A stretch of DNA of 17,495 bases from a virus: UHGV virus genome UHGV-0117107. One strand, given 5' to 3'. Position numbers and translations under genes: made by a program. The notes beneath the pieces were generated by a model. That model did not search any database. It had not been told where the DNA came from and worked only from the letters and a program-made list of their open reading frames with translations. How positions within the stretch are numbered: the first letter of the stretch is position 1; each line of letters opens with the position of its first letter. Positions 1 through 14,517 of this stretch are shown here, one piece after another.

Positions 1-2429
1 CCCGCTATTTTTAGCAATGTTCCGGCTTTAAGATTCTGTTGCCATGATTCCAAACTTCCCTTAACGCCATCAAGTATTTTTTTAACGTTATCTAAGAAAC
101 TTATTTTTTCGAATGGATCAGATAATCCTTTAATAAAGTTTCTTATGGCTAGTAATATTCCAGCAAACAATCCGCTGTTTAATACTTCGAAAATATCGCC
201 TTTACCAAAGGCATCGGCTATCATATTACCTATATCGGAAAAAGCTTCTCCGATGGCCGCGCCAACCGACTTTATAGTGTTCCATAGACCGGAAAAGAAG
301 CCAAGAAAACCTTGAAGTGTAGGAGAAATCTTAAAACTCTCAATAAGTGAGCGTCCAAACTCTGCTATTTTTGAAATCCCGTTGCTAAGAAATCCAACAA
401 TTTTATCAACTGCGTCGCCAAACAGATTTCCTTCTACTATGGAGTCTCTCACATTCGAGATAAAATCTCCAAAAGAACTCGTTGCATCCAGTATTCCTCC
501 ACCAAGTCCGGTGAAGTTTCCAATAATATCTAGAGCGCCTTTTCCAACAGCTTTAAAAGCCTCTATAACAATATCGATAGCGGAAAAGATTCCTTTAAAT
601 GTAGATTTTATTTTAGATGCAGCGCCTTCACTTACTTTTAAAGTATCAGTGAAAGCTTTGAATCTATCAATCATACTTACTACTTGGTCGACTGTAGTAG
701 GTGGAAATATCTCTCTAAAAGCTTCTTTTATCGGTTTTATTATATCTCCAAGGAATTTGAATATATTTTTCAAACCCTCTATAATTTTTTCTCTACCGCC
801 AAGCTCGGTTATTCCATCGATAAGACCATCTATGTTGTCTTTTAATTTATTCGTAGATTCGTTTGCTTCATTTAGCGCTTTTAATGTAGCGTCATCAACG
901 ATACCTGTTATTTCTAAATCGTTAGCTTCCTGAAAAGCTTTAATAGCTGACTCTGTGGCACTTCCGAAAATTCCATCAGCACCAGAATCGCCAATATCAT
1001 AGTTAAGGCTTTGTAATGCTTTTTGTACTTTTGTTACGTCGTCTCCTGTATTACCTTTCGATAAACCGGCTTCGACTCCACTTAAATCTACAAGTTCGCC
1101 TTTTAATCCGCTAACAGCTTCTTTTAAAATATCAGAAGATATGGCACCAGATTGAAAAGCTTTTTCTAGAGAACCATATTTTTTTATGATCTCGTCCATA
1201 TTAACGCCATGGTCCTCAGCAATCGATCTAACTTTTTCCTCAAAAGTATCGGTTTCTACACCAGCTTCATTTATTTTTTTTACAAGCTTATCCCAGTTAG
1301 AAGACATCGCGCCTTCCAATAATTCGTTACGAGATTTCGCTGATGATTCAACCATCTTTCCAATGGTATCTGAAATTCCAGTGAACAATTCTTTGGAGTC
1401 TTCAAAATCACCGACAAGTATTCTCCAAGTTTGACCCCATCCAGATTGGAGAGATTCTTTTACCGTATCTATCAGCTGTGTGAATGTTTTTACTTTTGTA
1501 GCAGCGTCTTCAGCGTCCTTCGCTAAAGCCATAATATCGTTTGCTTGAGATTCGCTATAACCTTGGGCAATAAGATCGGCCTTACTATATGCGCCAGACA
1601 ATTGGTTAAGAGTTTCAGTTAATACCTCGGTCGTTAACCATTCACCTTTTGTTAGGCTTTCTCTAAAGCTGCCATATGTATCAATAGCTTGTTTAGCGCC
1701 TGTTCCCAAAAGTTCAGACGTTCTAACAAGTGCGTCCTGAAATACCTTACCACCCATACCGGCATTAACAACTGAGTTCCAGTCCATAAGACTAACTTTA
1801 CCTGCCGCCAATGCCTGAGAAAGCTGATACATCGCAGTAGATGCCTGTTGAGAAGTTGATCCAGAAACTGCGGCCAAGTTCGCAATACCTTTAATAGCAT
1901 TAACTGAGGTATCAAGTTTTACACCAGCTGCTGTAAACGTACCGATATTACGAGTCATTTCCGTAAAATTGTAAATCGTCTTATCGGCATATGTATTTAG
2001 CTCATCTAAAGCCTTATTTACAATATCAACATTAGTGCCTTCCTGCCTTGTATTGGATAGAATTGTCTGAATAGCACCAATCTGAGTTTCGTATTCTTGG
2101 AAACCGCTTTTAACCGGATCTATAGTTAATGCTGATATCATACGTTTACCAGTGTTAACAGCCTGGTTAGTGATGTTTGCTAAAGCAGTTACACCAGCGA
2201 CCTGTAGTGCTGAAAATTTAGCCTGAACTGTCTCTATACCACTGCTCATTCCTGCAAAGCTAACACCTTTAGCAGCCTTACCGACATTCTCCAACCCTTT
2301 GGAGGCACCAGATAGATTTAACTTTTGTTTGAGCTTATCGAGAGTTGACATACTGGTTGCGACTCCGCTCTCAAACTGCTTATTGTCGAACCGCATCTCC
2401 AAGACTCTGTTGTCAATAGTCGTACTCAT
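1..2429 (-). CDS. Tail tape measure protein, 5' part (809 codons, 3' end beyond window start)
   Basis: This ORF is absent from the supplied track because no stop codon lies in the window. I translated the minus strand by hand from the ATG at 2429-2427 down to position 1 and found no stop. The product begins MSTTIDNRVLEMRFDNKQFESGV. It carries TP901-type tape measure motifs (YETQIGAIQTILSNT, MTRNIGTFTAAG, YQLSQALAAGKVSLMDWNSVVNAGMGG) followed by Gly/Ala/Ile-rich helical repeats. Its ATG overlaps the upstream stop (ATGA at 2426-2429). Confidence 0.85.
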   Translation of the reverse strand, partial: MSTTIDNRVLEMRFDNKQFESGVATSMSTLDKLKQKLNLSGASKGLENVGKAAKGVSFAGMSSGIETVQAKFSALQVAGVTALANITNQAVNTGKRMISALTIDPVKSGFQEYETQIGAIQTILSNTRQEGTNVDIVNKALDELNTYADKTIYNFTEMTRNIGTFTAAGVKLDTSVNAIKGIANLAAVSGSTSQQASTAMYQLSQALAAGKVSLMDWNSVVNAGMGGKVFQDALVRTSELLGTGAKQAIDTYGSFRESLTKGEWLTTEVLTETLNQLSGAYSKADLIAQGYSESQANDIMALAKDAEDAATKVKTFTQLIDTVKESLQSGWGQTWRILVGDFEDSKELFTGISDTIGKMVESSAKSRNELLEGAMSSNWDKLVKKINEAGVETDTFEEKVRSIAEDHGVNMDEIIKKYGSLEKAFQSGAISSDILKEAVSGLKGELVDLSGVEAGLSKGNTGDDVTKVQKALQSLNYDIGDSGADGIFGSATESAIKAFQEANDLEITGIVDDATLKALNEANESTNKLKDNIDGLIDGITELGGREKIIEGLKNIFKFLGDIIKPIKEAFREIFPPTTVDQVVSMIDRFKAFTDTLKVSEGAASKIKSTFKGIFSAIDIVIEAFKAVGKGALDIIGNFTGLGGGILDATSSFGDFISNVRDSIVEGNLFGDAVDKIVGFLSNGISKIAEFGRSLIESFKISPTLQGFLGFFSGLWNTIKSVGAAIGEAFSDIGNMIADAFGKGDIFEVLNSGLFAGILLAIRNFIKGLSDPFEKISFLDNVKKILDGVKGSLESWQQNLKAGTLLKIA
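873..1058 (-). other. PG_binding_1-like peptidoglycan-binding domain embedded in the tape measure protein (about aa 458-519)
   Basis: Hand translation gives KGNTGDDVTKVQKALQSLNYDIGDSGADGIFGSATESAIKAFQEANDLEITGIVDDATLKAL. This matches the classic G..G..V..LQ..L...G......DG.FG..T..AV..FQ....L...G.vd..T pattern of PG_binding_1. Confidence 0.7.
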
Positions 2430-2803
2430 ATCTTAGTAACCTCCCTCCAGGCCTCTTCTGCCATTTTGTCAAAAATAGGCTGAATCGCAGGATTGATATA
2501 ATCTCTCCCTTGAACCCAGCCTCCAGTACCAGTCCCATGACCATATTGCAAAATAATAGCGATTGGTACACCTTTATTAATGTTAGAGTTTGTAAAAGTA
2601 ATCTTTGCTGATCCGGATGTATTCTCAATTTCGTATCCCCACGATTTAGCAGTCAATCCAGATTCTACAGGAGTAGCAGACATAAGAGCAGCCACCCCTT
2701 CCCGACCATATTTGTCGAGTACGCTGAGCTTTGCATTCCCTTTAAGTTTCTCAAAATATCGAGTAACTTTAGAGAAGTCTCCCTTATGTCTGAAACTAAT
2801 CAT
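2426..2803 (-). CDS. Small virion/neck-type protein, HK97 gp10-like by eye (125 aa)
   Basis: SD AAGGAGAAAGATCAAAATG. The pattern TPVESGLTAKSW...ILQYGHGTGTGGWVQGRDYINPA resembles the HK97 gp10 family layout (TP.dtG.l..s ... E.G ... PF..pA). The stop overlaps the tape measure start. The function call is tentative. Confidence 0.45.
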   Translation of the reverse strand: MISFRHKGDFSKVTRYFEKLKGNAKLSVLDKYGREGVAALMSATPVESGLTAKSWGYEIENTSGSAKITFTNSNINKGVPIAIILQYGHGTGTGGWVQGRDYINPAIQPIFDKMAEEAWREVTKI

Positions 2804-2818
2804 TTTGATCTTTCTCCT

Positions 2819-4237
2819 TTACAGTAGCTCGTTAACTCGATCCTGAATTTTCTGAATCATGTTGTGATCGTATCCAGCTTTTGCGAGGGCATTAATTCGT
2901 GCATCTCCATTACCGTATTTTCCGGCAATGACATCACGGGCTACATTATCAATCACTATCTGATTTACTTTCTTCTGCACAGTGTCTGGATTATAACCAG
3001 CTTTCTTGAGAGCAGACACACGAGCATCACCATTACCCCATTTACCGGCGATTACTTCTTTAGCAATTTCATCGATAGATTTGGTCGGTTTTGGCGTAGA
3101 TGTAGGTTTAGATGTTGGTGCTGGTGTGGAAGAACTTTTCGCATATTTTGGTCTAGCAAAACCACGAATCATACCCCAGCCAACCGGAATGGTACGTCTT
3201 GCTACTGCTTCTCCTCTGTTACCTTCAATCGCTGTGATTTGTCCGTTTGAAACAGATTCCACATACCCGATATGATCAGAATATCCGTCGTTTGGCTGAG
3301 TCTTATCATCCCAGTTATAAACAATTACATCACCAGGTTTCGGAGTAATGGTGCCGTCCTCGACCCAAATGCCTTTCTGCTTAAAAATCTTAATATGTTC
3401 CTCACAACCAACTTCTGTACCGATGAGATCGACTGCTCCGGATTTGATAGCTGCTGCTGATACTGTACAATCACACCATTCATCATTAGGTTTAATAGCG
3501 TATCCGCGAGCCAAAGGTTTGTGAGAATTATAGATGTTAAGAATCTCAATATATTTACCGTTAGCTTCAGAATAACCGAGCCAACTTCTCATAACATTAA
3601 GAACGTCCTGTGCTGTTACACCCAATTCCGTATCCTCCTGTTTTCCGTAAAAATAGTTCATGTCGACTTTACCTTTAATACCGCCTACAGTTCCGGAACT
3701 CGTATACTGATGAACCAAACAACCGTAATCTGCTTTTCCGTTATAATCAGCGAGCCAGAATTTGTACTGTTTAATCAGATCATGATTATACCAATTTCGA
3801 TAGTAGTCGATATTTGCGTAGATTCCAGCTTTGTATCCCTGAGATTCTACGTACTCACAAAAGATTCTTGTAAAGTTATTACATTCATTTTTACCAAGTC
3901 TCACACCTTTTGCAGCTGCTTTCTTGACTGTGTCATATTCGAAATCTGCGAAGATGATTGTGTTTTTATCAAGACCAGCTTTTCTAACAACATCAACACA
4001 GAATTTTGCTTCGTCAAGTGCGCCCTGTTCGTTTAAGGCATAAATAAAATGGTAAGTTCCTATAATCGGAATCTTGTTGTTTTTACACCCATTGACATAC
4101 TCATAGAATTTTGAATCTACTGTCTTCCTGTAAGAAGATCTAAGAATCGCGAACTCTATTCCGGAGGACTTGACTTTAGAAAAATCTACATCTCCCTGCC
4201 AATAGCTGATATCAATTCCTTTCTTCACAATCATCAT
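2819..4237 (-). CDS. Modular endolysin: N-terminal GH25 muramidase, central CHAP/NlpC-P60-type cysteine peptidase, Ser/Thr/Pro linker, two C-terminal Cpl-7 (CW_7) cell-wall-binding repeats (472 aa)
   Basis: The GH25 signature GIDISYWQGDVDFSKVKSSGIEFAILRSS...DMNYFYG maps to about 3644-4225. The peptidase part has Cys in EWCDCTVSAAAIKSG, His in SDHIGYVESV and the motif AIEGN (about 3173-3625). The linker is SSSTPAPTSKPTSTPKPTKS. Two repeats of type VIAGK(W/Y)GNGDAR..AL.KAGY map to 2822-3076. The start overlaps the upstream stop (ATGA at 4234-4237). Confidence 0.9.
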   Translation of the reverse strand: MMIVKKGIDISYWQGDVDFSKVKSSGIEFAILRSSYRKTVDSKFYEYVNGCKNNKIPIIGTYHFIYALNEQGALDEAKFCVDVVRKAGLDKNTIIFADFEYDTVKKAAAKGVRLGKNECNNFTRIFCEYVESQGYKAGIYANIDYYRNWYNHDLIKQYKFWLADYNGKADYGCLVHQYTSSGTVGGIKGKVDMNYFYGKQEDTELGVTAQDVLNVMRSWLGYSEANGKYIEILNIYNSHKPLARGYAIKPNDEWCDCTVSAAAIKSGAVDLIGTEVGCEEHIKIFKQKGIWVEDGTITPKPGDVIVYNWDDKTQPNDGYSDHIGYVESVSNGQITAIEGNRGEAVARRTIPVGWGMIRGFARPKYAKSSSTPAPTSKPTSTPKPTKSIDEIAKEVIAGKWGNGDARVSALKKAGYNPDTVQKKVNQIVIDNVARDVIAGKYGNGDARINALAKAGYDHNMIQKIQDRVNELL

Positions 4238-4794
4238 CCTTTCGAATTGAATTTCTTTCTTCGAGCTGCATTCATTTCAGCATAACGACTCATTAATTCT
4301 CGCTTACTTGTCTGTTTAGGTGGCTCATTGTGAGCACTACATACCCTTATCAAAGTAATAAGTCTATTAAGATGCCATTTTTCACACTCAAATGGAATAT
4401 TGTTTGCAATCATCCAATAATATATAAGCTCTGACGTTATGATCTCTCGATTTTTCTTTCCAGATCTTCTGTCATTGATAGTAGTTGCTGTCATTGGAGC
4501 ATAAATATAGTCAGTTATTTGCTTTAAGTTATCTTCACTTAACCGACCATACACACTTGGATCAACATTCTTATTGAGTGTCATACACCTTATGTAATCT
4601 ATTGTTTCTTCAATGGTTTTCTCTTTATTTGTATAAAAAGGTTTACACCATTTTGATTCCCATTTTGAAAGAGAGATGAGTGAATGTTCTAATTGTAGTG
4701 TCTGCTCTTTCTGAGCTGGCACGGGTATAAACACTTGATTTCCTTCATCCCATAATTCGTCAGCTTCTCTAGCAGGTACTATAATCTGAATCAT
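4234..4794 (-). CDS. Hypothetical protein in the gpT / second tail-chaperone position (186 aa)
   Basis: It has its own SD GGAGGGATGAGTAATG. It sits directly after the chaperone-like gene. The basic C-terminus is RYAEMNAARRKKFNSKG. The function is inferred from position only. Confidence 0.4.
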   Translation of the reverse strand: MIQIIVPAREADELWDEGNQVFIPVPAQKEQTLQLEHSLISLSKWESKWCKPFYTNKEKTIEETIDYIRCMTLNKNVDPSVYGRLSEDNLKQITDYIYAPMTATTINDRRSGKKNREIITSELIYYWMIANNIPFECEKWHLNRLITLIRVCSAHNEPPKQTSKRELMSRYAEMNAARRKKFNSKG

Positions 4795-4823
4795 TACTCA
4801 TCCCTCCATTGTGTTCGAATTTA

Positions 4824-5237
4824 TTAAGCTCCTGGAAGCAGATTCTTTGAATTAGCTTCCTGTGCAACATCAGCCGGAACGATGCCGTTAATAAATGCCG
4901 CTGCTGCTTCTGCGTCTGTAGCAAGTTCCATGAAGAGTGTGGAATAAGCTTCTGTCTGTGAAAACTTTCTTGACAGTGGTCTTCCGTCCTCATCAAGTTT
5001 CATGAAACCTTTACCATCCGGAGCCTTTTCTCCATATGCTTTAAGAATAAGATCTTTAAAGATAGCTACGATTGTCGGAGTATCCTGTGCTGCCACGACT
5101 TTCTCAATCATCTCAGCGAATCCACCAACTGTAGATAATTCCATCTCCATAATTTCTGCTTTAGAAAGGTTGAAGTAATATGTATCTTCTCTTTCTACTC
5201 CGTTGTAATCTGTGTATTTAATAGCTTTTTTTAACAT
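4824..5237 (-). CDS. Putative tail assembly chaperone (gpG-position, 137 aa)
   Basis: SD AAAGGAGAACAACATG. This acidic small protein is the first gene after the major tail protein gene. The N-terminus KYTDYNGVEREDTYYFNLSKAEIMEMEL is typical of siphovirus chaperone families by eye. Confidence 0.55.
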   Translation of the reverse strand: MLKKAIKYTDYNGVEREDTYYFNLSKAEIMEMELSTVGGFAEMIEKVVAAQDTPTIVAIFKDLILKAYGEKAPDGKGFMKLDEDGRPLSRKFSQTEAYSTLFMELATDAEAAAAFINGIVPADVAQEANSKNLLPGA

Positions 5238-5273
5238 GTTGTTCTCCTTTCAATTTTTCAACGTTTAATAATT

Positions 5274-5308
5274 AAAAAAAAAGACCCCACCTATTGCTAA
5301 GCGGGGCC
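5274..5308 (-). terminator. Rho-independent terminator downstream of the major tail protein gene
   Basis: The minus-strand RNA reads GGCCCCGC-UUAGCAAUAG-GUGGGGUC followed by U9. The stem is six pairs including one G-U, plus flanking pairs. It lies 26 nt after the stop at 5334. Confidence 0.7.
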
Positions 5309-5333
5309 TATCGTTATTCCATTACTTAGTTAC

Positions 5334-5999
5334 TTACGCACCTGTCGTAGTTTTCATCATAGTAGCAACCTCATCCGGGAGTGGAAGTCTTGCTTCTGTA
5401 TCCTCGTCACCGTAAAGAACTGCCTCCAGTGCTGCCAGTTTAGTTGGATCAGCTGTGGTAGAGTCGATTATGAGATGAGATGTAGGTTTGAAATTAGCTA
5501 CAGATACCGGAGTAGTACTACACTCCCAGGACATAGTAGCCGCTTCCGGACTATCATTTACAGTCGCACGAGATACTTCGGAAGGAGCTGCAAGAGCACC
5601 GTATACCAGATGCAGTTTGTAACCATGTGATTCGCCCTCTGTATCATTACCAATAAGGCTTCGATAAGATAAACCGAAATTTTTACGTTTCTGCTGTCCA
5701 ATCTTAACGCCGGTTGCAATTTCTCCTTCACCGTTACATTCTGCGAATTCATCGGGATACATATAAGCTTCGATTGTGAAACCAAATTCCTCAGCGGACA
5801 TAAGTGTCACATACTTAATGTTATCTGCATAGAGCGGTGTCGGTTCTGCTCCAGATGGTGATTCTGTTACAGCTGTAAGACCATTCCATGCTGCTCCTTT
5901 CGGATAGTTTCCATCAGTTCCCATTGGATAAATTACGCCATGATCGACGCCAGTTTCAAACAAACGTTCGCCTGTTGCGTCCCATACAAGTTTAGCCAT
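5334..5999 (-). CDS. Major tail (tube) protein (221 aa)
   Basis: SD AAGGAGGAAATCAAATATG. The N-terminus MAKLVWDATGERLFETGVDHGVIYP...AAWNGLTAVTESPSGAEPTPLYADN...EEFGFTIEAYMYPDEF matches by eye the widespread siphovirus major tail subunit pattern. The position before the chaperones and the terminator behind it fit an abundant product. Confidence 0.7.
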   Translation of the reverse strand: MAKLVWDATGERLFETGVDHGVIYPMGTDGNYPKGAAWNGLTAVTESPSGAEPTPLYADNIKYVTLMSAEEFGFTIEAYMYPDEFAECNGEGEIATGVKIGQQKRKNFGLSYRSLIGNDTEGESHGYKLHLVYGALAAPSEVSRATVNDSPEAATMSWECSTTPVSVANFKPTSHLIIDSTTADPTKLAALEAVLYGDEDTEARLPLPDEVATMMKTTTGA

Positions 6000-6013
6000 A
6001 TTTGATTTCCTCC

Positions 6014-6334
6014 TTAATAATATAGCGTTAATACATCGTGATTGAGATTATCGGCTTTATACAGCCTATCGTAAGAGCAGTATGGAAGTTCCATAAGCTT
6101 CTGTATAACAGGATTATCCGGTAATTTACTAATCACGGTAATGTCATATTTCCTACGTGTTAAATATGTTGAGTTGTTAGCTTTCATGGTTTCGATATCA
6201 CTTAATGAATACACAATAGCTGGATAACTCATTTGAAGTGACGCTGGGGGTTGATAGAAAACCTGGTTACTACCAAGAAGTTCTTCAAGTTTCGCTTGTA
6301 GTTCTAATCTACTAGCCACGCCACACACCCCCAA
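6014..6334 (-). CDS. Neck / tail-completion-type protein (about 101-106 aa)
   Basis: The track start at 6334 is a TTG. A GTG at 6319 preceded by GGGGGTG is an equally plausible start. The motif VFYQPPASLQMSYPAIVYS...DNLNHDVLTLYY resembles a conserved small protein found just upstream of major tail genes in Gram-positive siphophages. The function is inferred from position. Confidence 0.4.
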   Translation of the reverse strand: MGVCGVASRLELQAKLEELLGSNQVFYQPPASLQMSYPAIVYSLSDIETMKANNSTYLTRRKYDITVISKLPDNPVIQKLMELPYCSYDRLYKADNLNHDVLTLYY

Positions 6335-6629
6335 TCGATAATATCAGTCTAGGATACTGAACTTCGACGTCTGTCACTTTCCATTTCTCATTTGAGAATT
6401 CAATCCAAGTCATGGCAGATACATGATCTCTGGCGTAGGGATCGGCCACTATACTAATCTGGTTTGAGATATTAATATCATCGTTAACGTTTCCAGAATT
6501 CTGCCGTTTCCACCGATTGCTCATGATATCACCAAAATACTGACGTTCGACGATTTCATCTTCTATCCAGACACCAGGCTCAACCTCGCCAGTATAAGTA
6601 AATCCGATCTTCCCACACCATTTATTCAT
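6312..6629 (-). CDS. Head-tail adaptor / head-closure-type protein (105 aa)
   Basis: SD GGAGTGATAGAACATG. It is the first gene after the capsid gene, and its size and position are typical of head completion proteins. No strong motif was recognised. Confidence 0.35.
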   Translation of the reverse strand: MNKWCGKIGFTYTGEVEPGVWIEDEIVERQYFGDIMSNRWKRQNSGNVNDDINISNQISIVADPYARDHVSAMTWIEFSNEKWKVTDVEVQYPRLILSIGGVWRG

Positions 6630-8748: not shown

Positions 8749-10020
8749 TCATAGGTCCGAAATTGGTGTGTCACCTAATGAGGGTTCTTCCTCTGGTGGA
8801 ATATCTTCTTCACTTATATCCGGAGTTGGATTCAATCCAGTTCCTGTTTGATTGATGTTGCTATTTACTAACTGGTCAGCTTTTGGATCATCTGATGGTT
8901 TCATACCAATAATCTGTCGAACCTCATTAGCTGTAAGTATTTCATTCTGCGTAAACACTCCAGCGATTTCAGCCAGTTTACTAAGAGGAACGAGTCTAAA
9001 CGAATCTCTGAAGAATTTGATAGTCTGATTCTGAGATCGTGCTGTCTTTGTTAAAAACTTGCGTTTCATCTCATCGACGATTGCTGCGACAATTGGCTCA
9101 ATAGTCCTTGAATAGTAGTTCAGCATTTCTTCTTCGCTCGCTGATCCATCGAGTATCGCCTGTGTGATTCCAAGCTGGCTGTATAGTTGAGCAGTTAGAT
9201 ATTCCACTTGTTTCATCAGGTTATTGTCGAGAGGTCTGTTTAACTGCACTATCTTTTCAGTTCCATCAACATAGCCAATACCGTAAGTGGAACCGCTTAG
9301 CTGTTGCTCCAGGTCCGCACGTCTTTCATTAGCTAGTTTTCGCCGAGCTTCAGATTTAATAGAATATGGTAGCTGAATAATCATGTCCAATTTTCCACTA
9401 CTGATACGTTCGTCCATTCTATCGAGAAGGGCAAGTTTTCGCGTAAGACGCTGCATGGTAGAATTATGCTCATTGATAACCGCATATAAAGGATTCTCAA
9501 CTATAGCTACCATTTTCTTTTCAAGCTTAATGTCTTCTCGTTCTCCTGTTCGTTCATTGTAAACTCTAACTTTCACATGGTTTGGATACCATTCAAGAAT
9601 TTTACCAGTTCGCATGGAAAGTATTTTATATGATTCAGTTTGAGATGGATCTATATCTGTATCAACAGGAACTATTGCTACACAGCCCTCGTCAAGCATA
9701 GACATAACGATATCTTGTGTGAATGCTCTACCAGTCTGATCGATATTCGCTTCAAGATTCAGACATTTATTAAGAGTCGAATCAATCTTTTCTATAAATC
9801 TACCGTTACTGTCTATACGACAGTGATTAATATTTATAGAAGAGACATCCAAAGCTATTCGATTAAAAATAGCAGTAACAACAGATCGCTCATTACCCCT
9901 AGTGAATCTCGGCCTATCCGGTCTATTTGAATATCCTGGACCAATGTTACGAGAGTCATATGTCGGATCTCGGTTCATGAAAGCATTCCACGAATGCCGA
10001 AGTCTATCTATAAAATCCAT
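8749..10020 (-). CDS. Portal protein (423 aa)
   Basis: SD GGAGGTAAAATCAAAATG. The call rests on size, position downstream of terL and upstream of protease/capsid, and a C-terminal region (NEILTANEVRQIIGMKPSDDP) followed by an acidic tail, as in many portal proteins. It is positional plus weak motif evidence. Confidence 0.65.
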   Translation of the reverse strand: MDFIDRLRHSWNAFMNRDPTYDSRNIGPGYSNRPDRPRFTRGNERSVVTAIFNRIALDVSSININHCRIDSNGRFIEKIDSTLNKCLNLEANIDQTGRAFTQDIVMSMLDEGCVAIVPVDTDIDPSQTESYKILSMRTGKILEWYPNHVKVRVYNERTGEREDIKLEKKMVAIVENPLYAVINEHNSTMQRLTRKLALLDRMDERISSGKLDMIIQLPYSIKSEARRKLANERRADLEQQLSGSTYGIGYVDGTEKIVQLNRPLDNNLMKQVEYLTAQLYSQLGITQAILDGSASEEEMLNYYSRTIEPIVAAIVDEMKRKFLTKTARSQNQTIKFFRDSFRLVPLSKLAEIAGVFTQNEILTANEVRQIIGMKPSDDPKADQLVNSNINQTGTGLNPTPDISEEDIPPEEEPSLGDTPISDL

Positions 10021-10034
10021 TTTGATTTTACCTC

Positions 10035-10631
10035 CTATGGTGTTGATGGATTAAGACTTTCAGCGATTTTAGCGTCTATGTATGAATGTATTTCAGCTAT
10101 ATCCGCTTCCGTCCAATAATCAGTACCTCTGACAGGTGTCTTCCCATCAGTACCAGGATCTCCTTTTGGTCCAGCATCACCAGTATCACCTTTTGGTCCC
10201 TGAACACCCTGTTCACCTTGAGGTCCGGTTAATCCTGTATCTCCCTTTGGACCCTGAATACCTTGTTCACCTTGAGGTCCAGTAGCTCCGGTATCACCTT
10301 TTGGTCCCTGGATACCCTGTTCACCTTTCGGGCCTGTAGCTCCGGTATCACCTTTCGGACCTTTAAGACTAGCTAACCATTCAGTCTCGCTTCCTTCGAA
10401 ACCAGTAGAAAGCGCTACTTGATAAGCAGAATCACCTGGATCTCCTTTTTCACCAGGAGGGCCAGGAGTGGTTGAACCAGTTCCTCCGTTAGTAATGAGC
10501 TCGCATAATTCCCAAAGCAATTCTTCAGCTCTAGACTGAGGTCTCGGCAATCCTTCAGTACCTTTCTGTAAGATAGTATTTTTCATATATTCTTCAAATC
10601 TACTATCCGGTATGTATGTTTCATCGATCAT
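10035..10631 (-). CDS. Collagen-like triple-helix repeat protein (198 aa)
   Basis: There are four G-X-Y triplets at aa 57-68 and 25 uninterrupted G-X-Y triplets at aa 91-165 (GPKGDTGATGPKGEQGIQ units). Between them is SAYQVALSTGFEGSETEWLASLKG, a motif common in phage collagen-like fibre proteins. A short non-collagen C-terminal domain follows. SD AGAGGTGACAAAATG. Confidence 0.85.
   Translation of the reverse strand: MIDETYIPDSRFEEYMKNTILQKGTEGLPRPQSRAEELLWELCELITNGGTGSTTPGPPGEKGDPGDSAYQVALSTGFEGSETEWLASLKGPKGDTGATGPKGEQGIQGPKGDTGATGPQGEQGIQGPKGDTGLTGPQGEQGVQGPKGDTGDAGPKGDPGTDGKTPVRGTDYWTEADIAEIHSYIDAKIAESLNPSTP
10137..10361 (-). repeat. Imperfect 54-bp tandem repeats (about 4 units) encoding the G-X-Y tract
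   Basis: The DNA units ggtatcacc-tttnggncc-ctgna(t/c)accctgttcacct(t)-nggncc-ngtnnn recur with 54-nt periodicity across 10137-10361. Confidence 0.8.
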
Positions 10632-10649
10632 TTTGTCACCTCTAAGTGC

Positions 10650-10895
10650 TTAGAGTTCAATTCCTTCAATGGCTGCTCTTACCTCAAGACATCTGAGATA
10701 CTCGCCCATGTAACGTTTCTGCTCCTGAAGTTTTGCTATCGGGCAAGTTGGTTTGAAGTCGAGAACTCCTGCTTCATGTTTTACAAGCATCTGATGTAAT
10801 TTGTCATATCGAATCTTTGTCTGATAATACTCAGCTTTAAAACGATCTTTATAATCGGAACTATTCATAAGTTCAATCGTGTCTTTTAACTCCAT
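10650..10895 (-). CDS. Small helical hypothetical protein (81 aa), resembles the widespread crAss001_48-related family
   Basis: SD AAGGAGGTAAATTCAAAATG. The sequence pattern is DYKDRFKAEYYQTKIRYDKLHQMLVKHEAGVLDFKPTCP...LQEQKRYMGEYLRCLEVRAAIEGIEL. The family assignment is from memory only. Confidence 0.45.
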   Translation of the reverse strand: MELKDTIELMNSSDYKDRFKAEYYQTKIRYDKLHQMLVKHEAGVLDFKPTCPIAKLQEQKRYMGEYLRCLEVRAAIEGIEL

Positions 10896-10984: not shown

Positions 10985-12718
10985 CTATTCAAAAGCATCC
11001 TTGTTCAGTTTATAAGCAACGAACGCATCCATAAGTGCTGCAACGCAGTCAATCTTATGCTCTCGTTTGCGTTTATAAAGTTTTCTGTTACCGTTGGTGT
11101 CTTCAAGGGTGATACAGTTTCCCATAGCAAACGACATGATCTCTTCATCGAATCGAAGCATTCTCTCTTCAGAAAGGTTCTTTAATTCTCCAAGAGGAAT
11201 AGATTCTGTCTTTGCTCCCTGAATTACTTTCTCAATACCAAACGGACCATTCTCGGTTTCCCATCTATTAACAAATTCCTTTGCTCCATACGGGTCAAAG
11301 CCGAAACACCGAACATCGTAATCACTATCGATAATATGTTTATCCAGATCGTCGTAAACTTGCATCATATCGAGGATCGCACCGTCGAGAACTATCAAAC
11401 TACCTTCATTCATAAACTGATCGTATTTCGTCCGCATAGCTGCTGGTAATTTCATCAGAGTTAATGAAGAAATATAGTTTCTAGTCTTAATACCGAACGT
11501 TCCATCCTGTAAAGGGAACATAAATGAGAATGAGCAAAAGTCGTCTCCCTGCGATAAGTCTGCTCCCATAGCACAAGGTAATCCCCAGTAATCTCTACGT
11601 CTATGAGGTATTGTCTCTTCATAAGTAAAGTAATAGGTATAACCTTCCAACGGGATTCCAAATCTTTTCGCAAGAATATCGTTCTTTGCTGCTGGGTTCT
11701 GTTCGGCTCTTTCCACGTCAAGCTGATATGCTTCAGGGCTAACGGTCTTTCCAATATTCGGATTAGCCTTAAGCCACATTTCTGGATTTCCTACTTCCTC
11801 AATATCATCGAGCTTATACCACCAGATTGATACGTGAGGATTAGTGTACTCGTCTCGAAGAATCTTAGATAATTCCATTTTGATTGTGTCGCCGCTACCA
11901 TTTCGTACAGTACCTTCTGAACTGGTTGCCACAATAAGATAATCATCATTTTTTGAGGCACCCTGTTCAACAGCACCAACGACGTCTTCTCGTACATCTC
12001 CTGATAGCCATTCATCTATAGTGGAGATCTTATCTCTTCGTGACTGCAATTTATCGATGGACATTGGTAGAACTTCGATTATTGAATTTGTAAGGAAGTT
12101 CTCTACACCCTTTTTCGTACTAGCTAACTTCTGTCGATTCGCCCTTGAGCCTGTAGTATTCTGTAAAGAGCCCTCTGTTAAGAATTTAAACAAAGGACCT
12201 CTAGCTCTTGCTATAGCTGTACGAATAGGAGCTAATGTTGCTTCTGATTGTCTCATTGTCGGCGCGGTTACTAATTGCTGAGTAGTACTCGTGTCGACAT
12301 TTAAAAAATAAGCCTGAATACATGCCGCATACATCGATTTAGCAGCACCTCTGGCTACGATCAAATACTGTTTGTTAACCAGTCGTTTCTTAATTCTCTT
12401 GGTAACATATCGTCCTTCGTCGTAGTCATAGACTGATCGTTCAACGAAGTAATACCAACCGAAAATCTGTTCCGCCCAAAGTTTAAACGAATCAAGTAAA
12501 TGTAGATCTTCGCCATCAGTTAATGTGAGTTCGTTCTCACAATAATTAATAAAACCCTGGATCGCTTGGTCGTCATACCAAATTCCAGGGTTAGCTATAA
12601 GATCATCTATTCGATTCATCTCCATCGAGATTTCTTTACATATTGGGATTTCTCCTCGCATGACCGCCTCTCTAAAGCGGCCGTAATATTTCGGAACAGC
12701 CGTGTTTGAAAGACTCAT
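10985..12718 (-). CDS. terL: Terminase large subunit (577 aa)
   Basis: It has a Terminase_1-like layout with a Walker-A-like LIVARGAAKSMYAA, an ATPase N-half and a nuclease C-half. Size and position upstream of portal fit. SD AGGAGAAAAACATCATG. Confidence 0.9.
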   Translation of the reverse strand: MSLSNTAVPKYYGRFREAVMRGEIPICKEISMEMNRIDDLIANPGIWYDDQAIQGFINYCENELTLTDGEDLHLLDSFKLWAEQIFGWYYFVERSVYDYDEGRYVTKRIKKRLVNKQYLIVARGAAKSMYAACIQAYFLNVDTSTTQQLVTAPTMRQSEATLAPIRTAIARARGPLFKFLTEGSLQNTTGSRANRQKLASTKKGVENFLTNSIIEVLPMSIDKLQSRRDKISTIDEWLSGDVREDVVGAVEQGASKNDDYLIVATSSEGTVRNGSGDTIKMELSKILRDEYTNPHVSIWWYKLDDIEEVGNPEMWLKANPNIGKTVSPEAYQLDVERAEQNPAAKNDILAKRFGIPLEGYTYYFTYEETIPHRRRDYWGLPCAMGADLSQGDDFCSFSFMFPLQDGTFGIKTRNYISSLTLMKLPAAMRTKYDQFMNEGSLIVLDGAILDMMQVYDDLDKHIIDSDYDVRCFGFDPYGAKEFVNRWETENGPFGIEKVIQGAKTESIPLGELKNLSEERMLRFDEEIMSFAMGNCITLEDTNGNRKLYKRKREHKIDCVAALMDAFVAYKLNKDAFE

Positions 12719-12761: not shown

Positions 12762-13334
12762 TTAACGACCATAACGAGCATTGTTCAATATTCTTGACAC
12801 ATAGGTTCGTCCAGTCTTTTTGTATGCTTCTTGAGATTCGAGCAACATAGCATCTGCCTTATCAGATAATCTTGAAGCATCTTCGAACATTTTATTATAC
12901 TCCTTAGCATCTGCTGTTTTGTTCTGTGCAGAAGCTATAAATCTTGAAACTGCGTTTTTACCAAGTTTCTTGCGCTGCTCTTTAACCTGATTCCACTTTG
13001 CATCAGCAACATCACTAGCTTTTGATGCTGCATCAACCTTTTTAGAATAATCTTTTACTGCTGATTTTTTGGCATCTACTTTCGCTTTCTTTATGTCGGC
13101 TTTTGCTTCTCTTAAAGAAGCCTTAGCTGCATCTCTTTGGATCTTATTACCTTTTCGAATAGCTCCAATACCGTTCAACTGACCAGAATTCCTAGCTGCT
13201 TTACGAGCTTCTAATCCATCAGCTCTGGCTTTCTTAGAGGCTTGTCTAAAGGTCGGCTGATCGCTTCTCCTTCTAACTCCCCACTTCATGCCTTTTACAC
13301 CGTAGTGCATTAATTTGTCATCATAGTATCCCAT
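12762..13334 (-). CDS. Paralogue P4 of the YHxGxKGxKWGxRR family (190 aa): N-terminal module plus Lys/Ala-rich predicted helical region
   Basis: The N-terminus is MGYYDDKLMHYGVKGMKWGVRRR. SD AAGAGGTGAAAATTCAAAATG. The rest is highly basic (AKADIKKAKVDAKKSAVKDYSKK). The C-terminal KKTGRTYVSRILNNA resembles TKGREYASRMLETT in P1. Confidence 0.7.
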   Translation of the reverse strand: MGYYDDKLMHYGVKGMKWGVRRRSDQPTFRQASKKARADGLEARKAARNSGQLNGIGAIRKGNKIQRDAAKASLREAKADIKKAKVDAKKSAVKDYSKKVDAASKASDVADAKWNQVKEQRKKLGKNAVSRFIASAQNKTADAKEYNKMFEDASRLSDKADAMLLESQEAYKKTGRTYVSRILNNARYGR

Positions 13335-13363
13335 TTTGAATTTTCACCTCTTATCTCAAATAG

Positions 13364-14500
13364 TTATGTGTTCCCGGACAGCATCCCAATGATTTCTCTA
13401 TCCGATAGTTTCGTGTTCGGATGTTGTTTACGATAATTATTTATCGCTTTTGTGTTAAAAGCATATGATACTCCTACTGGAACAGTTGCTCCCAAAGCAT
13501 ACGTAGCTCCCTTTTTTGAGCCAGTTATTATTTTGTTGACGTAGTCTTCAGCTTTCTGTATTTTCTTAGCTTGATCAAGATTCTTTGAAATCTCATCAAC
13601 CGTTAATTCTCTAAAATTAGTTACAGAAATCTTTCCTTTCGCATCAAATACTATGAGAGGATTTTTTGTCTTGTAGTCATTAAACTTCATATCGTTAATG
13701 TCTTGAATAGCATTATATCCTTTTGATTTCATAGCACTATAAAATGTTTTGGATGAATATGAATCATGATTCCCAGCTAATTTAGAATTGAAATTTTCAT
13801 ACAGTTTTGATAACTCACTATCTGTATACGTTCCGAATTTAGCAAATCTTATAGGCTTTTCATTCGAACTTATAGAGCTTGGTAGATTATGTACATACTC
13901 TGCGAACTTTTTATCATTCTTATAAAGATCTTTGAATACTTTCTTCGCATTATTCTTAGAAGCAACTTTGACATCATCTTTAACTAATAAAGACATCACA
14001 TATGCTTTTCCAGTCTGTTGATATCGTTCTCTACCAAGTTTACCTGCATATTTTATGTTATCGGTTTTCTTGTATGAAGCGAAGAAATTATCGTATAACT
14101 TTCCTCCGGTATCTTTCATCTCTACTCGTTGCAACAACTTTCCAGACTTTATAGTTTTATCACAGTAATCTTTAATGTACTTATTTGTTGCATATGCAGC
14201 TATCGAAGCAACTGTGATACCGGCTGTTATGGCTATGATTTTCTCAGTTTTGATACGTCTATCAGCCGCCATCTTAGCCTGTTTAGGACTCATCCCTTTG
14301 CTAATATACTTAGATTCAATCCTCGATCTGTGACTCGATCTATTTGTGCTCTTATCGGATTCGTTTTGGTATTTATTCTTTCCAGCATTAGTGAGAGAAC
14401 CGTCTTTATTTTGGTAACGTCTTATTCCCCATTTCATGCCTTTTACACCGTAATGGTAGAGTTCATCTGTAGAAGTTATTCTTGAAATTGCATACTCCAT
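13364..14500 (-). CDS. Paralogue P3 of the YHxGxKGxKWGxRR family (378 aa): N-terminal module, one hydrophobic helix, C-terminal domain shared with P2
   Basis: The N-terminus is ...TDELYHYGVKGMKWGIRRYQNKDGSLTNAGKNKYQ. The hydrophobic segment is IIAITAGITVASIAAYA (aa 88-104). C-terminal motifs FYSAMKSKGYNAIQDINDMKF..YKTKNPLIVFDAKG align with P2. SD AAGAGGTAGGTGAGTCAAAATG. Confidence 0.7.
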   Translation of the reverse strand: MEYAISRITSTDELYHYGVKGMKWGIRRYQNKDGSLTNAGKNKYQNESDKSTNRSSHRSRIESKYISKGMSPKQAKMAADRRIKTEKIIAITAGITVASIAAYATNKYIKDYCDKTIKSGKLLQRVEMKDTGGKLYDNFFASYKKTDNIKYAGKLGRERYQQTGKAYVMSLLVKDDVKVASKNNAKKVFKDLYKNDKKFAEYVHNLPSSISSNEKPIRFAKFGTYTDSELSKLYENFNSKLAGNHDSYSSKTFYSAMKSKGYNAIQDINDMKFNDYKTKNPLIVFDAKGKISVTNFRELTVDEISKNLDQAKKIQKAEDYVNKIITGSKKGATYALGATVPVGVSYAFNTKAINNYRKQHPNTKLSDREIIGMLSGNT

Positions 14501-14517
14501 TTTGACTCACCTACCTC

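Follow-up and report, generated by a model that had tools for sequence, protein, structure and literature searches.

The closest described counterparts of the protein examined here are the pneumococcal phage lysozymes Cpl-7 and Cpl-1, which begin with an N-terminal GH25 domain and, in the case of Cpl-7, end with C-terminal CW_7 repeats of the Cpl-7 type. The same elements are found in a lysin encoded by UHGV virus genome UHGV-0117107, a complete metagenomic contig of 17,495 nucleotides (17.5 kb) that was analysed over its entire length and is referred to below as the window. The window lysin differs from Cpl-7 in having an extra CHAP domain between GH25 and the repeats, and in carrying two CW_7 repeats where Cpl-7 has three. 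Bicatalytic GH25-CHAP architectures with a cell-wall-binding domain, the same class as the window lysin, are present in a catalogue of human gut phage endolysins (PMC13284279); that catalogue makes no mention of holins or genomic context, and the binding module of the window lysin is a pair of CW_7 repeats. What sets the window gene apart from those of Cpl-7 and Cpl-1 is its location, since it lies within the tail module and not beside a holin gene, and a Dp-1-family holin is the predicted partner in its closest relatives. Comparison of this location among related phages indicates that the gene very probably encodes a conventional, holin-dependent endolysin in the position that is typical of its lineage.

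Dedicated wall-binding repeats are usually absent from virion-associated hydrolases, which tend to form domains within structural proteins. The window lysin resembles this group, examples of which are the lytic domains in the tape measure protein (TMP) or in Tal of Gram-positive phages (survey PMC10194240), by the location of its gene in the tail cluster and by its predicted degradation of peptidoglycan. Unlike the virion-associated hydrolases, it is free-standing, contains CW_7 repeats and, in relatives of the window phage, travels with holin-like genes.

The lysin gene occupies the junction of the phrog_4338 (gp16-like) gene and the gp17/gp10-like gene, which is hereafter called the slot. 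Cluster DJ Gordonia phages and Rhodococcus phage ReqiPepy6 possess a homologous structural module, and likewise have an envelope-degrading lysis enzyme in the slot, directly ahead of the gp10-like gene and far from the holin. In those phages, however, the enzyme is the accessory mycolyl esterase LysB, which is accompanied by a second major-tail-protein paralogue, and lysin A and the holin are encoded upstream of the terminase gene, whereas the slot of the window holds the peptidoglycan hydrolase itself. The placement of lysin B in cluster DJ has been remarked on as an unusual arrangement (PMC12859696). FP_oengus (Oengusvirus) and Lactococcus phages of the 1706/P092 type also share a homologous head-tail module and gene order with the window, but in these phages the phrog_4338/gp10-like junction is uninterrupted.

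The domain order of the window lysin is GH25, CHAP, a linker rich in serine, threonine and proline, and two CW_7 repeats, with all matches above the Pfam curated cut-offs (Table 1). In the PHROGs database the protein matched endolysin families exclusively, without any structural-protein family. These matches bear out the domain content given in the original prediction, which had been made from the sequence of the window without database searches. The open reading frame (ORF) comprises the lysin domains and linker only and is not fused to a structural protein. A hydropathy scan revealed neither a transmembrane (TM) segment nor a signal segment, and the N-terminus, MMIVKKGIDIS, leads straight into GH25. 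Inspection of the translation identified the Cys of NDEWCD and the His of SDHIGY as candidate catalytic residues of the CHAP domain. Among solved structures, those nearest to the protein belong to the Cpl-7 wall-binding domain (5i8l, E 1.5e-29, and 4cvd) and to the GH25 lysins 4jz5, 4kru and 2nw0. Judged from these matches, the protein is a member of the well-known GH25/CHAP/CW_7 endolysin class.

The slot was surveyed in 80 IMG/VR loci collected through the gp10-like protein (71-82% identical) and 91 collected through two tail proteins. Removal of identical slot sequences left 121 distinct slots, in which coding-strand ORFs only were tallied; bulk detection of lysins relied on seed sequences and not on full Pfam searches, with Pfam checks carried out on representatives. 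A peptidoglycan hydrolase gene, with six catalytic types represented overall, is present in 103 of the 121 distinct slots, and one or two small membrane-protein ORFs adjoin the lysin in 65 of these 103. Six slots hold a non-lysin ORF alone (five of 80-109 aa and one of 499 aa). Only 12 of the 121 are empty, with 7-21 nt between the flanking genes, and the synteny comparison proposed in the original prediction thus revealed that the junction is not normally uninterrupted.

The slot hydrolases are of diverse types, comprising Amidase_2, Amidase_3, GH25, CHAP, Phage_lysozyme and two unnamed N-terminal modules, and their binding modules are SH3, LysM or CW_7; the slot lysins at loci L179 (Amidase_2+SH3) and L181 (Amidase_3+CW_7) are examples. 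Such free exchange of modules at a fixed position is endolysin-like behaviour and is unlike that of tail components. Lysins orthologous to the window protein, with the GH25+CHAP+CW_7 architecture and 51-62% identity, were found in the slots of 14 distinct loci, and the slot lysin of IMG/VR contig 3300006099_000009 is 62% identical to the window lysin over its full length. This degree of divergence between orthologues in the same slot indicates long residence there.

Slot contents also vary among sequenced phages. The closest GenBank relative, MT835495.1, whose flank proteins are 61-73% identical to those of the window, encodes a lysin of the Amidase_2+SH3 type at this site; in MT835616.1 the slot lysin is of the CHAP+CW_7 type. 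Nothing is found in the slots of FP_oengus and Lactococcus P092. The slot of Arthrobacter phage Caterpillar (locus L001) spans approximately 6 kb with five genes annotated as tail proteins; that of Streptomyces phage Rima (L096) contains a second major-tail-protein paralogue and an annotated 'chitosanase', and those of ReqiPepy6 (L093) and Gordonia phage Tanis (L095) contain a second major-tail-protein paralogue and lysin B. From these comparisons the slot can be described as a lineage-wide plastic cargo site, which in gut Lachnospiraceae phages usually accommodates the lysin and, in many cases, putative holins as well.

The strongest argument for an endolysin came from the location of the holin. 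Only loci whose sequence continues for 6 kb or more past the tail genes were compared, and the two resulting classes, of 33 and 8 loci, were checked by eye. Where the slot contains membrane ORFs as well as a lysin, a phrog_4105 gene but no Dp-1 holin is encoded downstream (33 of 33 loci). Where the slot contains a lysin only, a recognised holin, unaccompanied by a lysin, lies approximately 14-20 kb downstream (8 of 8 loci); seven of these eight carry a lysin of the GH25+CHAP+CW_7 type, the 62%-identical orthologues included. Two kinds of downstream holin were recognised, PF16938 Phage_holin_Dp1 (E 3e-32), with an XhlA-like protein ahead of it at some loci, and phrog_1129. Regions that are otherwise collinear differ cleanly in whether they have or lack the holin gene. 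Holin location varies with slot content, and this pattern argues for reading the membrane ORFs of the slot as holins and its lysin as the endolysin, whichever of the two layouts is present. By their size, TM content and position, and by this pattern, the slot membrane ORFs are regarded as putative holins.

Individual genomes illustrate the separated layout. On contigs with a lysin of the window type, the tail fibre genes are followed by a diversity-generating retroelement (DGR) and, past it, by the Dp-1 holin gene, with a gene for either a phrog_4105 membrane protein or the XhlA-like phrog_937 in between. MT835495.1 encodes two membrane proteins past its tail fibre genes, one of them a phrog_1129 holin (E 1e-20), and bacterial genes begin a few kb beyond; a seed-based scan and the gene map located no lysin beside this holin, or elsewhere on the contig besides the slot. 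In FP_oengus, where the slot is empty, endolysin and holin both follow the tail genes. In substance, then, relatives share the gene order of the window and encode a holin outside the corresponding stretch, an arrangement that the original prediction had itself recognised as speaking against its proposals.

Homologues of the lysin were also sought in species-representative bacterial genomes. The scan yielded 25 loci, nearly all in Lachnospiraceae and related Clostridia (including Blautia, Mediterraneibacter, Faecalicatena, Ruminococcus sp. and Lachnospiraceae isolates). At three of the 25 a full-length homologue occupies the same slot, namely in a Ruminococcus sp. metagenome-assembled genome (MAG), in another MAG and in the isolate Lachnospiraceae bacterium 1XD21-87 (QXWO01000037.1), and two further loci have a different CHAP lysin in the slot. 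At most of the others, CHAP, GH25 or CW_7 lysin homologues immediately follow small multi-TM ORFs, in cassettes of conventional layout that belong to prophages of Blautia, Mediterraneibacter and Faecalicatena among others. In one such cassette the lysin behind a Dp-1 holin has the order CHAP-GH25-CW_7, and its CHAP domain is 61% identical to that of the window lysin. The occurrence of homologues in holin-lysin cassettes argues that this protein family is used as an endolysin in orthodox contexts.

Several points weigh against a conventional endolysin. The 17.5 kb available contain no holin, and the downstream region of this phage lies past the contig end. The slot membrane ORFs mostly match no annotated holin family, with one group giving a weak holin PHROG match. 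Locus L104 has a slot lysin and also a second lysin-like gene near its downstream membrane genes, and the 22 kb retrieved for the empty-slot prophage L183 include a holin gene, with no lysin recognised. Seed-based detection could, moreover, have missed divergent lysins. A strict either/or rule, by which a phage would have either a slot lysin or a post-tail lysin, was rejected because L104 has both.

In the favoured reading, the lysin would be co-transcribed late with the tail-assembly operon, possibly at a level reduced past the hairpin that follows the major tail protein gene. With neither a signal peptide nor a membrane anchor, it would build up in the cytoplasm until a holin encoded elsewhere triggered and allowed it to reach the wall. 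By analogy with the relatives, the holin partner of this phage is predicted to lie beyond the contig end, as a Dp-1-type or phrog_1129-type gene past the tail fibre genes. The GH25 muramidase and the CHAP peptidase/amidase would then cut peptidoglycan, to which the two CW_7 repeats would anchor the enzyme. Since an endolysin needs late co-expression with the structural genes, placement in the tail operon would carry no functional cost. The position is inherited within the Lactococcus-1706-like siphophage lineage.

Of the two explanations put forward in the original prediction, one supposes a virion- or tail-associated hydrolase, which in this case would assist the PG_binding_1-bearing TMP across a thick wall during DNA injection. 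The tight packing of the gene into the tail operon, between the chaperone-position genes and the gp10-like/TMP pair, would suit such an enzyme, as would the peptidoglycan-binding domain of the TMP, the CW_7 modules found in the TMPs of some relatives, and the extra genes annotated as tail proteins in the slots of actinophage relatives. However, the lysin is free-standing and has a classical endolysin architecture with binding repeats and no domain that would join it with structural proteins, slot lysins of different relatives switch catalytic type as freely as endolysins do, and the small membrane-protein genes that so often lie beside it have no rationale if the enzyme acts at entry. Moreover, the lysin-only relatives have a holin and no other recognisable lysin, so that in those phages the slot lysin must serve lysis. 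Together with the homologues in conventional cassettes, these findings make a dedicated entry enzyme improbable. A dual role, in which the bulk of the protein acts as endolysin and a fraction joins the tail or co-purifies with virions and aids entry, is similarly improbable. That fraction would sit at the tail tip or in the lumen, possibly alongside the PG_binding_1-bearing TMP, and help to penetrate the thick Lachnospiraceae wall. Co-transcription of the lysin with the tail-assembly genes and the peptidoglycan-binding domain of the adjacent TMP are compatible with it, but it has no positive evidence and the endolysin role alone accounts for all observations.

The other explanation, a recent moron-like relocation of a lysis gene into the tail operon of this phage, drew on the position of the gene, which is indeed atypical for siphophages of Gram-positive hosts in general, and could appeal to the uninterrupted junctions of FP_oengus, Lactococcus P092 and 12 IMG/VR loci. 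Against this, the slot carries a lysin in the great majority of distinct relatives (103 of 121) and in prophages of several Lachnospiraceae genera, and orthologues in the same slot are found in at least 14 distinct loci. The GC fraction of the gene (0.398) does not deviate from that of the window (0.391) and also matches the neighbouring genes, and the gene has no promoter or terminator of its own. A recent arrival is considered highly unlikely. With the gene read as an endolysin, its odd position in the tail module is explained and becomes ordinary, as the normal state of a large gut-phage lineage.

More broadly, the gp16-like/gp10-like junction may be a cross-phylum hot spot for envelope-degrading cargo, a suggestion that the comparisons support better than recruitment of the lysin to the tail. 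The cargo may consist of peptidoglycan hydrolases with or without holins in Lachnospiraceae phages, of LysB in those of Gordonia and Rhodococcus, and of the annotated chitosanase in Streptomyces, and under such an arrangement lysin and holin may be separable by approximately 14 kb of tail genes. Literature searches gave no description of the slot in Lachnospiraceae gut phages, nor of the relation between slot content and holin location; apart from general surveys of endolysins, they returned the note on lysin B in cluster DJ. The relation between slot content and holin location appears to be modestly new. In practice, an apparent anomaly is removed, and the gene can be annotated as an endolysin with no adjoining holin expected. 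The lineage is large and widespread, with hundreds of IMG/VR contigs and with prophages in Blautia, Mediterraneibacter and Ruminococcus-type genomes, and many members have the entire holin-lysin set between the tail chaperone genes and the TMP gene. Pipelines that seek lysis cassettes only past the tail fibre genes miss slot lysins, and those that call every tail-module hydrolase an entry enzyme mislabel them. The slot further provides a convenient natural set of host-matched lysins and, as holin location varies with its content, offers a clean comparative system for the unlinking of lysin and holin genes.

The junctions of the lysin gene are exactly as originally described, with an ATGA overlap at 4237-4234 between the lysin start and the upstream ORF, a 15-nt gap to the downstream gp10-like gene, and a 4-nt ATGA overlap (2429-2426) between the gp10-like and TMP genes. 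Translational coupling of the lysin to the upstream gene, which had been claimed from the overlap, is at most plausible because the start is ambiguous. Four in-frame starts fall within 10 nt (ATG 4237, ATG 4234, TTG 4230 and GTG 4228), and the spacing of a Shine-Dalgarno sequence, GAAAGGA at 4243-4237, favours TTG 4230 or GTG 4228. Among the 20 junctions between window genes, six show an overlap, so that tight packing is no special property of the lysin gene.

No promoter or terminator brackets the lysin gene in a scan of positions 2200-6100, and promoter-like matches around it were no commoner than in shuffled sequence. The sole terminator-like site in that interval is the hairpin at 5282-5309, which lies upstream of the chaperone genes and does not flank the lysin gene; as shuffled sequence gave a mean of 2.3 terminator-like sites, this hairpin is weak evidence by itself. 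It could attenuate transcription, and so allow a high output of tail-tube protein relative to chaperone, lysin and TMP.

An exact-protein look-up matched the window to the whole of contig NODE_792 in ENA ERZ1755062. All real genes of the window lie on the minus strand, and the contig terminates within the TMP gene (Table 1). A hydropathy scan of the coding strand revealed no small membrane protein and hence no holin candidate. The earlier statement that no holin is nearby is accurate for that strand, but because the contig stops in the TMP gene it is uninformative on the region past the tail genes. In a megablast search of the whole window against GenBank phages, the sole match was a 76.6%-identical stretch in the terminase gene of MT835495.1, which indicates that there is no close sequenced phage.

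Table 1. Features of the window and the matches on which their assignments are based.
Feature	Position	Strand	Match or remark
HNH-like gene	16498-16941	(-)	
Four tandem DUF7211 paralogues	12762-16125	(-)	PF23847
Large terminase	10985-12718	(-)	
Sequestin-family gene, 81 aa	10650-10895	(-)	PF21825 in precomputed contig annotation
Collagen-repeat gene, 198 aa	10035-10631	(-)	
Portal	8749-10020	(-)	
Protease-capsid fusion, 581 aa	6654-8399	(-)	Weak Pfam matches Peptidase_S78 and Phage_capsid
DUF7253	6312-6629	(-)	
Tail terminator	6014-6334	(-)	
Major tail protein	5334-5999	(-)	
Terminator-like hairpin (12 pairs) and T-run	5282-5309	(-)	In 96-nt gap past major tail protein gene
Tail assembly chaperone Phage_TAC_17	4824-5237	(-)	PF23803, E 1.6e-37
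phrog_4338 protein, 186 aa; Lactococcus 1706 gp16-like, function unknown; second chaperone position	4234-4794	(-)	PHROG E 8e-75
Lysin, 472 aa	2819-4237	(-)	
GH25 (Glyco_hydro_25), lysin aa 8-187	3677-4216	(-)	PF01183, E 2e-29, 103.6 bits vs cut-off 27
CHAP, lysin aa 254-340	3218-3478	(-)	PF05257, E 2e-8, 35 bits vs cut-off 26
Two CW_7 (Cpl-7-type) repeats, lysin ~aa 389-428 and ~aa 432-471	2825-3073	(-)	PF08230, E 2e-34; limits of second repeat approximate
gp10-like / 1706 gp17-like, tail completion/Neck1 family	2426-2803	(-)	phrog_5, E 1e-13
TMP, N-terminal 809 aa, cut by contig end	1-2429	(-)	Pfam TMP_3; phrog_4372, E 5e-235
PG_binding_1 inside TMP, aa 461-519	873-1049	(-)	Pfam E 5e-19

The structural module can be classed, from its homologies, as Lactococcus-1706-like. 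The conserved order of that group is present, running from the protease-capsid fusion through DUF7253, tail terminator, major tail protein, tail assembly chaperone, phrog_4338 and gp10-like genes to the TMP gene, and the annotation of ReqiPepy6 names equivalents of 1706 gp09-gp18, among which the slot flanks are gp16 and gp17. Homologues of the phrog_4338 protein, for which there is no PDB relative, occur in approximately 240 GenBank phages and those of the gp10-like protein in approximately 237, each time immediately upstream of the TMP gene; the counts for the two proteins are near-identical per host genus. The hosts are Arthrobacter, Gordonia, Streptomyces, Rhodococcus, Lactococcus (P092/P118 type) and Faecalibacterium (FP_oengus), and homologues are also found on human-gut contigs. 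With regard to the flanking genes, the assignment of two 'chaperone-position' genes upstream of the lysin stands for the first, which is a Phage_TAC_17 member, while the second can be named only as phrog_4338, of unknown function. The 'gp10-like' label of the downstream gene agrees with its phrog_5 match and with the annotation of the FP_oengus homologue, but the protein has no Pfam family at E <= 0.01.

The TMP does contain the peptidoglycan-binding domain that had been noted. Within the lineage, TMPs have exchanged such modules, the window TMP having PG_binding_1 and those of several relatives (L109, L183, and L063 at 11827-11988) having CW_7. The same families of binding module are thus seen in TMP and endolysin.

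The regions past the tail fibre genes of relatives contain additional features. The DGR was recognised from Avd (phrog_3206, E 7.5e-14) and a reverse transcriptase (PF00078, E 5e-17) at 14491-16288 of locus L097, by the tail fibre genes; it is also present in L099-L104, L109, L121 and L131, and the equivalent region of the window phage is beyond the contig end. Its presence suggests hypervariation of a receptor-binding protein in the lineage. The phrog_4105 protein is of approximately 113-125 aa with one N-terminal TM segment and is of unknown function (L099 16126-16500, L121 16211-16552, and homologues). Its gene lies past the DGR in most examined relatives of that tail type, with or without a Dp-1 holin, and is replaced in L097 and L109 by one for an XhlA-like protein. 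The phrog_4105 protein may have an accessory part in lysis, for instance as an antiholin or spanin-like factor. At L183 (19558-22032), a phrog_1129-type holin and a second TM protein are encoded past the tail fibre genes and are followed directly by a large serine recombinase.

Finally, some features of the remaining window genes were recorded. The four DUF7211 paralogues, of 190, 378, 352 and 181 aa, have in common an N-terminal 'YHHGVKGMKWGVRR' motif, and two of them have one predicted TM segment each. They occupy the interval between the HNH-like and terminase genes, which is the site of lysin A and the holin in actinophage relatives, and similar genes are also present in MT835495.1. The collagen-repeat protein, encoded between portal and terminase, has a long region of collagen-like G-X-Y repeats (GPKGDTGATGPKGEQGIQ...) and no Pfam family on record. 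The protease-capsid fusion is also found in Arthrobacter AM/AU and Gordonia DJ relatives, and the Sequestin-family gene is kept in MT835495.1, at 10605-10850.

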